Counted from the stretch's first letter, positions 9,979 through 18,508 are shown. The stretch: DNA of 64,000 bases from Flavobacteriales bacterium (GCA_038202695.1 JBBRET010000011.1:6544-70543); one strand, 5' to 3'. Numbers and translations: made by a program. Notes: generated by a model not told the origin, from the letters alone.

Positions 9979-10378
9979 TTGCTTTTCCTTCTAATAAAAT
10001 ATCGGCACCAATTATACCATGAACTGCCTTGGCTTTGTGTTGCTGCAATGCTTCATTTACATGTGTCATATCAAAAATAATCAACTGTAAATCAGTAGTC
10101 TTCCAGCGGCCAATTTGAAGCGAATTGTTCTTTGCTAATTGTGTAAACATTCCTGTAGCTCCAGCTCCAGCAGCTTTGGTTTTTGATTTTCCGGCCTTGA
10201 GATTAAAAAATTCAATGCCTTCAAAACCCACACAACTATTGGAAGCACCAGTATCTAAGATAAAATTCCCCAAAACGCCGTTAATAATAGCTTTAATCAA
10301 TAAATGCTGGGTTTTTGAAACTTTAAAACTAATTTTTTTATACTTTTCTTTTTTGAGAATGTCTTGAAGTTGTTTCAT
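9941..10378 (-). CDS. Retropepsin-like aspartic protease
   Basis: FILDTGAS catalytic motif and GIIGADIL; start placed at ATG 10378 (MKQLQ). Confidence 0.85.
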
Positions 10379-12950
10379 AAAATTTTCTGTAAAACAAAAA
10401 TAAAGCAATTAGGCAGATACCAATTAAAATATAGAGAAAATAATTGGGGGAAGCTTTCTTTTCTAGTGTACCATAATAGACAAACGAACTCCAATAATAA
10501 GGTGATTTTTTTGCGTTTGGAATTTTATCATCAGCTAAAAAATTAAGTTTAGCTTGATGATTTGCTTCAAAATAGGAATTCCCTTTTTTAATATTTTTAT
10601 AGAAATTCTCCATCACAACAGAAGTAGTATAATCGTTTACTTTCCACAATGAAAAAAGTAAATTTTGAGCTCCAGCAAACTGAAATCCACGGGCAATACT
10701 CATTGAACCCTCAGCTTTGTAAAGTTTTCCAATTCCGGTTTCGCAAGCACTTAAAACAACTAAATCAGGATTTATGTCAAGATTATACAACTCAGAATAC
10801 AAAATTTCTTGATCATAAAACTTGATGCTTGCTGGCTCAATTATGTCTCCCGAAGATGCATGAGTAGAAAGATGTAAAATGGAATAGTTGCCAGCATCTT
10901 TTTTAAAATTTGCAAATGTTGCTTTTTCTGAACTCAAATACTTTCCATCAAAATTGCTTTTTATTGCATCTCTTTCTTTTTTAGAGTAGGTCAATTCTAA
11001 ACTTGATTTTGCAAAAACAGGAAAAATTCCCAATACCGATTCGGTAGTTTTATGAAATGGTTTTTGTTCCAAATAAAACGAAGCAGCATTTGCATAACCA
11101 ATAGCATAATCATTAATCAAATAATGCATTTTGCCGAAATTAGTAGTAGAACTTCTCTCTGTGATCAAAGCCTCAAATGGCAGCATTGTCATCAAGCCAT
11201 CCGGAACGATAATGAGGTTTTTGTGATTGTTTTTTTTTGGTAATTTCAACACTTGATATGCAACATTTGAAAAAGTATTAAACGCAATTGGATTGTTAGA
11301 AATAGTAGTGGCATTATTAAAAAAATCAATAAACTGTACAATTTTTAGGGTCGCTGTATCGGTGTTGTTTACGGACTCTATTTTTATAGTTGAGTTTTCA
11401 ATAGTGAAAACGAAAAATTGTTCTTTACCGAAAAAATACTCTACAAACACAGCATTGTCTTTTTCTAATTTAGTATACAATTTACTTATTTCTACTTTCT
11501 TTTCAAATATTTTTGCCTCTTTAGATTTCAATAACAACATCAACTCATTTTGTTTTCTAATCGCTTCATTAATAATTGAAATATCCGCATTACCGAGGTT
11601 TTTTTGTTCTTTAATAATAGCAGTATTCCACTTTTGAAGTTGCACAATTATCAGTTTCTCATCTTTAGTTTGTGTTTTTGAATTGATTACACTTTGCTTC
11701 AAAATACCCGATTTTGTGGCTTCAGCGAGTTCGAATGCATTTTCAATATAAATTACATTCTTCTCTTTTTTATACAGGCTATAGTTAATAGAGATACATG
11801 CTTCTGTCCGATTTCGATTTCGAATTTGGTTAATTAATTTTGAATTTTCATACACCAATAGTGATTGAAATAAGTTTTCAATATGAAATGCAAGTTGATA
11901 ACTTTCTAAGGATTTTAGTGGTTGATTTTGGACTAAAAACAATTTAGCCTGCAAGTCTAAGGCATCCAATAAAACAGTCTCTGCATACAATTGATTTTTG
12001 TTGGGAAGAATTGTTTTTGCTTTTGAATAATTTGGAATTAAGATTTTAAAAACAGACTGTATAGTGATTTGAGTTTCTTCAAAATTTCTTTGTTGATAAT
12101 TCAGCTGAGCAATATCAATGTACAACTGCGCTTGTTTTCTGGGCTCAATAGTAGGTTGGCTGATGAAAATTTTCGAAGCTTTCTCCATATTAGAATTTGC
12201 CAAATCAAAATTTTGTTGTTGACTGTAAATTTTAGCTAAATTCCGATAAGCATTTGACAAAGTTTCCGATTGTTTTTTGTCGTTTTTTAATAAAGAAATT
12301 GAAGATAAAAAACATTTTTCTGCTAATTGAAAAGGATTGTCTTTTCTTGGCAAACCATTTCCTAACAACATATAATTTGCCCCTAAATTATTAAGTAAAA
12401 TTCCTTTTTGAATAGAAGTTAGTTTATCCCTTTTAACCGTTTTTTCTAGTAAAGTAATTGCTTCATTAACTCGTCCTGTGTTTTGATATACATTTGATAA
12501 ATTCAATACTGCAGCATATTTTTGTTGCTCGTTGTCTTCGATATTTGCGATGTAAAAATATTGCTTTATGGTATTTTCGGCACTGTCATAATCACCTATA
12601 ATCGTGTATAAATTTCCCAATGGTTGTAAACACGATTCAACGATAGTATAATTTTCTAACTCATTCTTTTGAAATAATTGCCACGCTTTTTCGTAACTTT
12701 TAATTGCTTTTTGAACATTTCCGAATTGATTTTGATAGTACGCTTTATTACAATTTAAAATTACAAGCGCCAGAAATTCTGATTTTGATTTAGGGGAAAT
12801 GTTTTTCTCAAATGTTTCTAATCGTTGTAAACTTTCCTCATTTGGGTGCGCAACAAAAGCATCAATAGAAGTATAAATTTTATCTTCCAAAGAATTACTT
12901 TGAGAAAAAGAAACAGTTGTAAAAAGGAAAAGGAGTAGAAGTTTATACAT
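10338..12950 (-). CDS. Exported TPR-CHAT (caspase-like) protease with C-terminal membrane anchor
   Basis: Signal peptide from ATG 12950 (MYKLLLLFLFTTVSFS-Q); TPR-like helices; CHAT motifs LIIVPDG, LHLSTHA (His), VLSACETG (Cys), FSLWKVND, SPYYWSSF; C-terminal TM segment NYFLYILIGICLIALFLFY. Confidence 0.9.
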   Translation of the reverse strand: MYKLLLLFLFTTVSFSQSNSLEDKIYTSIDAFVAHPNEESLQRLETFEKNISPKSKSEFLALVILNCNKAYYQNQFGNVQKAIKSYEKAWQLFQKNELENYTIVESCLQPLGNLYTIIGDYDSAENTIKQYFYIANIEDNEQQKYAAVLNLSNVYQNTGRVNEAITLLEKTVKRDKLTSIQKGILLNNLGANYMLLGNGLPRKDNPFQLAEKCFLSSISLLKNDKKQSETLSNAYRNLAKIYSQQQNFDLANSNMEKASKIFISQPTIEPRKQAQLYIDIAQLNYQQRNFEETQITIQSVFKILIPNYSKAKTILPNKNQLYAETVLLDALDLQAKLFLVQNQPLKSLESYQLAFHIENLFQSLLVYENSKLINQIRNRNRTEACISINYSLYKKEKNVIYIENAFELAEATKSGILKQSVINSKTQTKDEKLIIVQLQKWNTAIIKEQKNLGNADISIINEAIRKQNELMLLLKSKEAKIFEKKVEISKLYTKLEKDNAVFVEYFFGKEQFFVFTIENSTIKIESVNNTDTATLKIVQFIDFFNNATTISNNPIAFNTFSNVAYQVLKLPKKNNHKNLIIVPDGLMTMLPFEALITERSSTTNFGKMHYLINDYAIGYANAASFYLEQKPFHKTTESVLGIFPVFAKSSLELTYSKKERDAIKSNFDGKYLSSEKATFANFKKDAGNYSILHLSTHASSGDIIEPASIKFYDQEILYSELYNLDINPDLVVLSACETGIGKLYKAEGSMSIARGFQFAGAQNLLFSLWKVNDYTTSVVMENFYKNIKKGNSYFEANHQAKLNFLADDKIPNAKKSPYYWSSFVYYGTLEKKASPNYFLYILIGICLIALFLFYRKFYETTSRHSQKRKV

Positions 12951-12972
12951 CTTATTTACTTTTACTATGAAA

Positions 12973-17205: not shown

Positions 17206-17787
17206 ATGGCAGAAAAAAGCGCACATCCAGATCAAATCTATATTGATGGATTAGTTCAAAACAATTCCGGTATCATACAATCTATATATAAGAAGTTCGC
17301 GCCTAAAGTGAAGAATTACATCCGCACAAACAGTGGAGATGACGATCAGGCACAAGATGTTATTCAGGAAGTATTAATTACAATATATGATCAAGCTAAA
17401 ACTAAAGGGTTGCAATTAACATGTCCATTTGACGCTTACTTTTTTCTATTGTGTAAAAGGCGTTGGTTAAACGAAATCAAAAAATCTTCCAATAAAGAGG
17501 TAACATTACAGGATGAAAATGTATCTATAGATGAATCTGTTCAAGAAATGGCATTCCAAACCGAAGCTTTTGACGAAAAACAATCCTTATTTGATGAGAT
17601 GTTTCAAAAATTAGGCGATAAGTGTCAAGAAGTACTCAAACTTAGTTTTGTCACCAAAACGATGGAAGAGGTTGCTGCCAAATTGAACGTAACTTATGCT
17701 TATGTGAGAAAGAAAAAATCACTTTGCACAGGTCAGTTGACAGAATTAATTCAACAATCTAATCGATACAACCTATTAAAACAGTAA
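17206..17787 (+). CDS. ECF-type RNA polymerase sigma-70 factor
   Basis: 193 aa with only region 2 (AQDVIQEV...RRWLNEIK) and region 4 (LGDKCQEVL...TMEEVAAKLNV). Confidence 0.9.
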   Translation: MAEKSAHPDQIYIDGLVQNNSGIIQSIYKKFAPKVKNYIRTNSGDDDQAQDVIQEVLITIYDQAKTKGLQLTCPFDAYFFLLCKRRWLNEIKKSSNKEVTLQDENVSIDESVQEMAFQTEAFDEKQSLFDEMFQKLGDKCQEVLKLSFVTKTMEEVAAKLNVTYAYVRKKKSLCTGQLTELIQQSNRYNLLKQ

Positions 17788-17791
17788 AGTC

Positions 17792-18508
17792 ATGAATGAA
17801 GAAATATACATCCGTTTTGAGAGCTATCTCGACAACGAAATGACTTCCGATGAGAAAAGCAACTTTGAAAATCAGTTGAAAACCGATAGTCAATTGGAAG
17901 AAAGTTTTGAGTTGTATAAAGAAGCAACTCAGTTTTTGGCACATAAATTTGATGCAAAAACTATCAATTTTAAACAAAACTTAGAATCTATTTCAAAGGA
18001 AAATTTCGCAGACAAACAAAAAGCCAAAGTAATAGCGTTTAAACCTTGGTATTATGCAGCTGCTGCATCTCTTGTGATTGGTTTTGGGTTGTGGTTTATG
18101 AATCAAGGAAATCCAAATTACAGTGATTATAACCAACACGAAACTGCAATGTTTTTGGAACGAAGTGAGGCAAATGTCAATTTAAAAGAAGCACAAGAAG
18201 CATTTAATGGTAAAAAATATCCACAAGCAATCGTCGCATTCGAAAAAATTGGAAACGCAAAATCTCCTGAAACAGATTATTTCTTTGCGATAGCGTTAAT
18301 CGAAACAAGAAATTACACTAAAGCAGAAAAGCTATTAAAAATAATCAAGGACGGAACTTCGGTTTATAATACGAAAGCTTTATGGTATTTGGCATTATCG
18401 AATTTGAAACAAGAAAATTTTGACCAATGTAAATTGTATTTAAAAGAAATTCCTATTGATGCTGAAGATTATGACAAAGCACAAGAGTTGCTCAAAAAAT
18501 TGGAATAA
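17792..18508 (+). CDS. Anti-sigma-like membrane protein with periplasmic TPR domain
   Basis: N-terminal ESYLDNEMTSDEKSNFE anti-sigma-like segment; TM WYYAAAASLVIGFGLWFM; TPR-like C-terminus (YFFAIAL, LWYLALS); starts 4 nt after the sigma gene stop. Confidence 0.75.
   Translation: MNEEIYIRFESYLDNEMTSDEKSNFENQLKTDSQLEESFELYKEATQFLAHKFDAKTINFKQNLESISKENFADKQKAKVIAFKPWYYAAAASLVIGFGLWFMNQGNPNYSDYNQHETAMFLERSEANVNLKEAQEAFNGKKYPQAIVAFEKIGNAKSPETDYFFAIALIETRNYTKAEKLLKIIKDGTSVYNTKALWYLALSNLKQENFDQCKLYLKEIPIDAEDYDKAQELLKKLE

Follow-up and report, generated by a model that had tools for sequence, protein, structure and literature searches.

A co-inherited ECF sigma factor, anti-sigma-like protein and exported CHAT protease in Flavobacteriaceae: a probable split counterpart of DdvA-DdvS

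Introduction

Extracytoplasmic function (ECF) sigma factors make up one of the major signalling systems of bacteria, and the mechanisms by which they are activated are known for few of their groups only. Caspase homologues of the CHAT family are abundant in bacteria, and we know of almost none with an established substrate or role. A divergent locus in which the two kinds of protein are encoded side by side raises the question of whether such a protease can act in the control of such a sigma factor. The locus lies in a 64,000-nt stretch of DNA from a Flavobacteriales bacterium (JBBRET010000011.1:6544-70543), here called the window, from whose first letter all coordinates are counted. Its source is a 2.86-Mb Flavobacteriaceae genome assembled as 76 contigs, and the nearest CHAT homologues are annotated as Flavobacterium. 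The locus encodes an ECF sigma factor and an anti-sigma-like membrane protein on one strand, and on the other three small exported proteins (sm109, lip146 and lip324), a protein with PKD and immunoglobulin (Ig)-like domains (the PKD protein), and an exported protein with tetratricopeptide repeats (TPRs) and a CHAT domain.

A sequence-only reading of this stretch had proposed that the CHAT protein, once a ligand is bound by its TPRs, cuts the anti-sigma factor in the periplasm and that the freed sigma factor induces the exported genes. Genes were taken from an open reading frame (ORF) listing and from family scans, and these recovered every gene element that the reading had listed for the divergent locus, with the features it had described. 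We find a real and conserved module, apparently undescribed so far, for which the DdvA-DdvS pair of Myxococcus xanthus sets a precedent. The full chain, in which the CHAT protein, aided by the PKD stalk, would activate the system by cutting the anti-sigma-like protein, is a tentative reading of these sequences, to which we give a probability of about 0.35.

Results

To judge from their distribution, the genes for the sigma factor, the anti-sigma-like protein, lip324, the PKD protein and the CHAT protein are inherited and lost together. The phyletic sample held one genome per genus for 151 Flavobacteriaceae genera, about 30 of them with a full-length CHAT orthologue, and neighbourhoods of approximately 20 kb around 29 CHAT orthologues, together with that of F. 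pygoscelis, gave 30 related loci (31 with the window). In each of the 30, the sigma and anti-sigma-like genes lie on one strand and the lip324, PKD and CHAT genes on the other, with their order kept. When sigma orthologues were called at E < 1e-60 (32 of the 151 genomes), both sigma and CHAT were present in 31 genera and neither in 118, leaving two fragmented assemblies: one with sigma alone, where the gene sits at a contig end among 610 contigs, and one with CHAT alone, where it sits on a 3-kb contig. The sequence-only reading had named co-occurrence of the core genes in other genomes as its test in advance, and both the loci and the genus table bear it out. Roughly one Flavobacteriaceae genus in five has the module, and many Flavobacterium are among its carriers. 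A tatD gene on one flank and an aspartyl protease gene on the other are jointly present at 23 loci and jointly absent from 7; because these two come and go together while the five genes stay, we take tatD and the aspartyl protease gene for syntenic flanks, and the five genes for a block of their own.

The sigma factor (193 aa; 17206-17787, plus strand) matches TIGR02937 at 54.7 bits (cut-off 42.9) and Sigma70_r2 at 27.9 (cut-off 24), with Sigma70_r4 at 19.3, under its cut-off of 24.1, and has the characters of an ECF (group 4) sigma-70 factor. Orthologues with 54-70% identity are present at all 30 related loci. The next gene begins 4 nt past the sigma stop and encodes a 238-aa protein (17792-18508, plus strand) with a transmembrane helix and TPR_19, an arrangement that had been read from the sequence at the outset and that is confirmed here. 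A terminator-like hairpin (18533-18563, plus strand; a 12-bp stem, then a T run) closes the unit. The 238-aa protein is predicted to comprise a short, cytoplasmic N-terminal domain, a helix at residues 86-103 (or about 86-110), and a periplasmic TPR domain. The helix keeps its position across 41 orthologues and paralogues, and the N-terminal 85 residues hold no cysteine, here and in nearly all of these 41 relatives. Position and topology, which fit a class I anti-sigma factor, together make it a well-founded guess that this protein is the anti-sigma factor. In the linker between helix and TPR domain, Arg124 is kept in at least 90% of the 41 proteins, at a mean identity of 37%, and the region around it is a lead as a candidate cleavage or contact site.

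The repeated promoter-like motif that had been noticed earlier is indeed present, and in three copies. The minus strand has GGTAAC-N16-TnATAT at three sites, where chance would give 0.21, and at least three copies arose in 0 of 100 shuffles. Copy 1 (17133-17160; GGTAAC-N16-TTATAT) points away from the sigma gene, copy 2 (17037-17064; GGTAAC-N16-TGATAT) lies 5' of sm109, and copy 3 (16621-16648; GGTAAC-N16-TAATAT) lies 5' of lip146 and is followed by a duplicated leader. The longer form of the motif, GGGTAACAA-N13-T(G/T)ATATAA, which can also be given as GGGTAACAA-N13-TGATATAA, is found between sigma and PKD genes at 30 of 31 loci, with a gap of exactly 16 nt between GGTAAC and TnATAT in all of those 30; the odd locus has GGGTCACAA in its place. 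The first copy, about 47 nt from the sigma ATG in most loci and directed away from that gene, lies 44-48 nt from the sigma start in 19 of the 30 and 44-63 nt in 24, and in the rest 97-251 nt (L002, L035, L045, L052, L053, L055 and L057 among them). A second copy precedes lip324 in most loci; in the window, no copy stands directly before lip324.

A position weight matrix (PWM) built from 52 motif instances, the window excluded, was scanned across the 2.86-Mb genome at a threshold of 14 bits. Only two sites exceeded it, both at this locus, namely copy 1 (25.6) and copy 2 (31.7, the best in the genome); copy 3, which begins AGGTAAC, scored below 14 bits. ECF promoters typically have a GTAAC -35 element, and this element, together with the confinement of the motif to this locus, makes it very likely that the motif is the promoter cognate to this sigma factor. 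We consider it highly probable that the five genes function as a conserved module and that sigma-dependent promoters are marked by the motif. The sigma gene itself has different upstream sequences. In aligned upstream regions a block, TTTTTTTAcTTTAG, is kept 5' of sigma, with a T-rich TAcTTTAG-like box about 20 nt before the ATG; in the window this housekeeping-type -7-like box is TAAATTAG (17180-17187, plus strand), 18 nt 5' of the sigma ATG, which we take to be a TAnnTTTG-type element of Bacteroidota. As the sigma gene is preceded by this box and not by the ECF-like motif, autoregulation is not evident.

The order of signals on the minus strand bears on which genes the sigma factor may control. 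A terminator-like hairpin follows lip324 at 27 of 31 loci, the window included (15031-15057, minus strand, in the gap between lip324 and PKD genes; an 11-bp stem and a T run), and an ECF-like motif stands between this hairpin and the PKD gene at 6 of 31 loci only. The PKD and CHAT genes thus appear mostly to form a separate transcription unit, whose products can pre-exist sigma activation, and the robust outputs would be lip324 and a variable small exported protein. The same signals also bear on a different account, in which the sigma and anti-sigma-like proteins sense alone, via the TPR domain, and simply regulate the envelope genes beside them, and PKD and CHAT proteins are an effector pair without a role in sigma release, with lip324, the small exported proteins, the PKD stalk, or other envelope or foreign proteins as candidate CHAT substrates. 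The six loci with a motif directly 5' of the PKD-CHAT unit favour this account, and read-through of the terminator is possible elsewhere; the terminator that parts PKD and CHAT from the motif-driven genes in most loci speaks against it.

Only one of the motif-driven genes proved to be a constant part of the module. The product of lip324 (15084-16058, minus strand) is encoded at 30 of 30 loci, with the gene duplicated in 6, and its AlphaFold model (predicted local distance difference test, pLDDT, 89) consists of beta-sandwich domains; a Foldseek search of the PDB gave no meaningful match, the best being CBM20-like sandwiches at E 8e-4 and a TM-score of 0.2. In this protein and nearly all its orthologues the lipid-bearing cysteine of the lipobox is followed by a stretch rich in Asp and Glu at +3 to +6, C-x-x-(D/N)-D-D, which presumably corresponds to the surface-export signal of Bacteroidota lipoproteins, and lip324 is a candidate surface lipoprotein. 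The other two small genes encode sm109 (16662-16991, minus strand), a small exported polar protein with a signal peptide, and lip146 (16134-16574, minus strand), a lipoprotein with an LTSC lipobox followed by TKDE. No homologue of either was found among 40 related loci, and by that measure they are variable cargo specific to this genome, outside the conserved module. Of the three exported proteins first described here, all are present, then, and lip324 alone is conserved elsewhere. The proposal that the sigma factor induces the exported genes is supported in so far as an ECF-promoter-like motif precedes them, and is to be amended in that sm109 and lip146 are no part of what is conserved.

The way in which cargo varies suggests how it may be acquired. 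The gene that comes next to the first promoter copy differs by genus; here it is sm109, then lip146, and elsewhere it mostly encodes an exported protein of 138-147 aa that the window lacks. That protein contains two repeats of the form W.V.T..G.YSG.S.S...A..MI and matches nothing in Pfam (for example at L036, where it lies between sigma and lip324, and at L039, L047, L056 and L061). In the window, a leader and start repeat (…AAACAAAAATTTAACAACTATAAAAACTTAGAAATCATGAAAAC) occurs at 16051-16095, 16567-16611 and 16984-17028, before three unrelated exported genes. The copies of sm109 and lip146 are 96% identical (over 45-55 nt) and that of lip324 73%, and identity stops just past the start codon. 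The pattern suggests the recent duplication of a promoter-leader cassette by which new cargo genes are captured.

Variable cargo behind a fixed promoter also invites the idea of a maturation loop, in which the CHAT protein would process a sigma-induced exported protein (the 147-aa protein of most genera, here sm109 or lip146, or else lip324) rather than the anti-sigma-like protein, and the product would bind the TPRs of the anti-sigma-like protein or of the CHAT protein, for positive or negative feedback. Such a loop would suit the fact that the first gene after the conserved promoter always encodes a small exported protein, whatever its family, and TPR domains typically bind peptides. The absence of sm109 and lip146 homologues from the 40 loci, and the lack of conservation of the small proteins generally, are hard to square with a specific ligand, and lip324 co-varies least with the other parts of the module; we regard the loop as quite improbable.

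The PKD protein (673 aa; 12973-14994, minus strand), with the Pfam domains PKD, DUF7619 and DUF7849, the last almost restricted to Flavobacteriaceae, has orthologues of 44-54% identity at 30 of 30 loci. Its AlphaFold model (mean pLDDT 75) shows a chain of Ig-like domains and then 9-10 long strands at residues 466-672, where the strand number is uncertain, pLDDT being 51-58 at 511-540. Foldseek aligned this C-terminal part with OmpA-TM, Ail and OmpX (9fzd, 3qra, 1qj9) at probability 1.0 and TM-scores of 0.46-0.48 on the target, and aligned the stalk with Ig chains of adhesins and integrin legs. The model has the closed antiparallel barrel and C-terminal aromatic residue of the small OmpA/OmpX/Ail type, and WKF forms the C-terminal end of the protein in 28 of 31 orthologues. 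Model and structural matches thus agree with the beta-barrel-like C-terminus that had been proposed. A small beta-barrel of this kind offers a passenger no pore, and its two termini lie on the periplasmic side, so the Ig stalk should hang from the outer membrane and reach into the periplasm.

The fifth protein is the exported TPR-CHAT protein (870 aa; 10338-12950, minus strand). Its signal peptide, TPRs, LHLSTHA and LSACETG motifs and C-terminal transmembrane helix were all found as first described; the start at an upstream TTG (13022) was not upheld, the likely one being MYKLLL at 12950, 22 nt past the PKD stop. The gap between the two genes is 20-100 nt elsewhere, except at L047 (G077:C2), where about 4 kb is inserted between the end of PKD (5936) and the start of CHAT (about 10001). 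The CHAT domain is recognised by PF12770 (E 4e-43, 148 bits against a cut-off of 24) and the TPRs by PF13424 (E 2e-16), and the catalytic His and Cys of the family are in place. The signal peptide, C-terminal hydrophobic helix and basic tail are kept in all orthologues, and the prediction of a periplasm-facing protease of the inner membrane fits these features, with the TPR-CHAT body periplasmic and tethered to that membrane.

His697 and Cys736, with the motifs around them, are invariant in 34 of 34 orthologues and paralogues that are otherwise 22-40% identical, which argues for selection on catalysis. The same invariance tells against the notion that the TPR-CHAT protein is a scaffold or co-anti-sigma factor that binds the anti-sigma TPRs or the PKD stalk and passes a conformational signal. 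Both membrane proteins do carry periplasmic TPRs, and the active site of DdvA is described as incomplete (PMC6061681, PMC11506125), as a non-proteolytic partner would have it; even so, we consider this the least likely of the accounts given here. In a PDB sequence search, the CHAT domain alone matched no chain, so that closeness to DdvA is argued from the Pfam family and architecture only. Full-length and profile queries of PDB sequences were swamped by TPR matches and did not place the protein beside DdvA, Csx29 or separase.

The association of a CHAT protease with such a sigma factor is not confined to this locus type. A second architecture, in which a sigma gene is followed by one for a homologue of the transmembrane TPR anti-sigma-like protein, and the latter is convergent, at 3-25 nt, with a C-terminally anchored CHAT gene, was present at 11 of 11 Flavobacteriaceae paralogue loci examined (second-architecture loci are L063-L071, L073, L081, L082 and L088). 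In these triads the CHAT gene is preceded by a gene for a lipoprotein of about 200-220 aa, and several Flavobacteriaceae triads also encode an 810-aa protein with weak beta-propeller matches. No consistent GTAAC-type motif common to the paralogous triads was found. In the phylum at large, 169 of 301 Bacteroidota genomes sampled encode a CHAT protein, and among 39 Bacteroidota CHAT loci a sigma/anti-sigma pair lay near 6 of 11 C-terminally anchored CHATs, versus 4 of about 28 unanchored ones.

Two further observations concern other proteases. In one paralogous triad, an RseP-like M50 gene with the motif HELGH (L066, 3616-4971) is found some 700 nt 5' of the sigma gene, which may be coincidence. 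The retropepsin-like aspartyl protease encoded beside the window's locus (9941-10378, minus strand; Asp_protease_2) has a DTGA motif and lacks a signal peptide, and its gene shares about 40 nt with the 3' end of the CHAT gene. It was considered as a sixth member of the module and rejected, since it co-varies with tatD and both are missing from the 7 loci in which the core genes have other neighbours.

Discussion

A regulatory partnership between a CHAT protease and an ECF sigma factor is not without precedent. In Myxococcus xanthus, the ECF sigma factor DdvS is paired with a transmembrane anti-sigma factor, DdvA, whose periplasmic part is itself a TPR-CHAT (PMC6061681, PMC11506125), and DdvA-like fused proteins were found by the same authors only in Myxococcota and one Comamonas (PMC6061681, PMC11506125). 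The sequence-only reading, which knew of no experimental account of such a CRISPR-independent module, had overlooked this system, a much closer relative than the Csx29/Csx30 pair that it cited. As in DdvS-DdvA, an ECF sigma factor is here co-encoded with a single-pass membrane anti-sigma-like protein, a TPR-CHAT with a His-Cys dyad is placed in the periplasm, at the inner membrane, and the proposed logic is that the CHAT removes a bulky periplasmic part, after which RseP follows. Unlike in DdvA, the anti-sigma-like protein and the TPR-CHAT are encoded by two genes on opposite strands, and the CHAT has a C-terminal anchor of its own. The anti-sigma-like N-terminus is without cysteine, whereas that of DdvA is a CHCC zinc domain. 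An outer-membrane barrel with an Ig stalk and a lipoprotein are extra conserved partners, and the motif-driven genes encode exported proteins, in contrast to the CBASS and type III-B CRISPR genes of the DdvA regulon.

Other systems share single elements of this design. In the type III-E craspase, Cas7-11 acts with the TPR-CHAT Csx29, which cleaves Csx30, a protein that binds an ECF-like sigma factor (PMC10028731). There as here (by our proposal), a TPR-CHAT protease is tied to ECF-type control through cleavage of a sigma-binding protein; unlike the cytoplasmic, RNA-guided and Cas-associated craspase, the CHAT protein here is exported with a signal peptide. No cas-like genes were present among the ORFs of the locus, nor were arrays or any similarity to Csx30 or Csx31, and the resemblance is one of analogy and not of membership. 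As the module lacks defining features of both the DdvA type and the type III-E craspase, it may be said to work like these systems, without being a member of either. A reading as antiphage defence was tried and rejected, as PADLOC gave no match but a generic TPR and no defence genes lie nearby.

The proposed cascade would resemble RseA-DegS-RseP in its two steps, a site-1 cut of a single-pass anti-sigma factor in the periplasm and then the action of an M50 site-2 protease. It would differ in its site-1 enzyme, a cysteine protease of clan CD that the module itself encodes in place of a PDZ serine protease, and the anti-sigma-like protein is unrelated to RseA. Signalling of the FecA-FecR-FecI type is common in Bacteroidota, in the form of a SusC-like transducer, an anti-sigma factor and an ECF sigma factor. 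The module shares with it the co-encoding of an outer-membrane barrel, an inner-membrane anti-sigma-like protein and an ECF sigma factor, as well as the driving of neighbouring envelope genes. In place of the 22-stranded, TonB-dependent FecA, the module has a small barrel of the OmpA/OmpX kind that bears an Ig stalk in the periplasm, and it adds a protease that FecIRA lacks. A Pfam scan of the locus proteins matched no TonB-dependent receptor or FecR family. A literature search on CHAT with ECF, sigma, Flavobacterium or Bacteroidetes returned only the DdvA and craspase papers, and the paper that re-classified the ECF factors makes no mention of CHAT in its main text.

We propose that the module is probably a split version of the DdvA-DdvS design and would operate as follows. 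The sigma factor would be made from its housekeeping-type promoter and kept at the membrane through binding to the anti-sigma-like protein; once freed, it would read the locus-specific promoters and induce lip324 and a variable small exported protein (here sm109 and lip146). The PKD and CHAT proteins, mostly made from a unit of their own past the terminator, would form the sensing arm, with the small barrel in the outer membrane and the Ig stalk extending from it into the periplasm, in the direction of the inner-membrane-anchored TPR-CHAT. In the last and least certain step, the CHAT protein would, upon a signal, cut the periplasmic part of the anti-sigma-like protein, perhaps in the Arg124 linker, after which the single RseP-type site-2 protease, which is encoded elsewhere in the genome, and cytoplasmic proteases would release the sigma factor. 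What ties the CHAT protein to the sigma/anti-sigma pair in this proposal is the co-inheritance of the genes, the recurrence of the architecture among paralogues, and the DdvA precedent, where the fusion of an anti-sigma factor with a TPR-CHAT amounts to a Rosetta-stone argument for a functional link (PMC11506125).

Several results weigh against the CHAT protein as the activating protease. Models of anti-sigma factors in NCBIfam matched the anti-sigma-like protein only weakly (E about 0.002, far under their cut-offs), and in a profile search of the PDB its N-terminal domain matched no solved anti-sigma domain. Arg124 remains only a lead, because CHAT and other clan CD enzymes do not all cleave after Arg. 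When pairwise distances were controlled for tatD, the sigma, anti-sigma-like, PKD and CHAT proteins correlated at 0.51-0.76 and lip324 least, at 0.37-0.51, and this mirror-tree correlation speaks for the proposal only weakly, as a shared history of the module would give the same pattern. The DdvA mechanism itself, signal-induced autoproteolysis by the CHAT followed by RseP, is proposed and not demonstrated (PMC6061681, PMC11506125). The motif directly before PKD at six loci means that the CHAT gene can itself belong to the regulon. Finally, in a genome of another family (L113; G217:C45, 6334-11067) a PKD-DUF7849 gene is paired with a gene for a C-terminally anchored CHAT, and no sigma orthologue lies close by; the best match to the sigma factor, 28% identical, is on a different contig, so that the pair can evidently work without the sigma factor.

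This last locus also lends weight to the account in which PKD and CHAT proteins are effectors and the sigma/anti-sigma pair senses alone, as does the fact that most Bacteroidota CHATs are exported without an adjoining sigma factor (about 24 of 28 unanchored ones). The account is difficult to reconcile with the near-perfect co-occurrence of sigma and CHAT, with the return of the triad in an independent paralogous architecture where the CHAT gene converges on that of the anti-sigma-like protein at 3-25 nt, and with the DdvA fusion. We consider this account somewhat unlikely and treat it as the main rival of the activating-protease reading. It is tempting to speculate further, that the outer-membrane Ig stalk relays a surface event to the inner-membrane CHAT, which cuts a separate anti-sigma factor at a conserved Arg next to the membrane, that this is the ancestral, split form of DdvA, and that it constitutes, with the paralogous triads, a common and unrecognised route of signalling in Bacteroidota; taken together, these propositions are unlikely to hold as a whole.

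The locus-specific promoter motif offers a ready reporter, and genetic tools exist for the Flavobacterium group. If the CHAT protein is indeed the activating protease, it would represent a new class of site-1 protease and would lend support to the still-unproven model of DdvA. A periplasmic caspase homologue of bacteria would then have its first physiological substrate, the anti-sigma-like protein.

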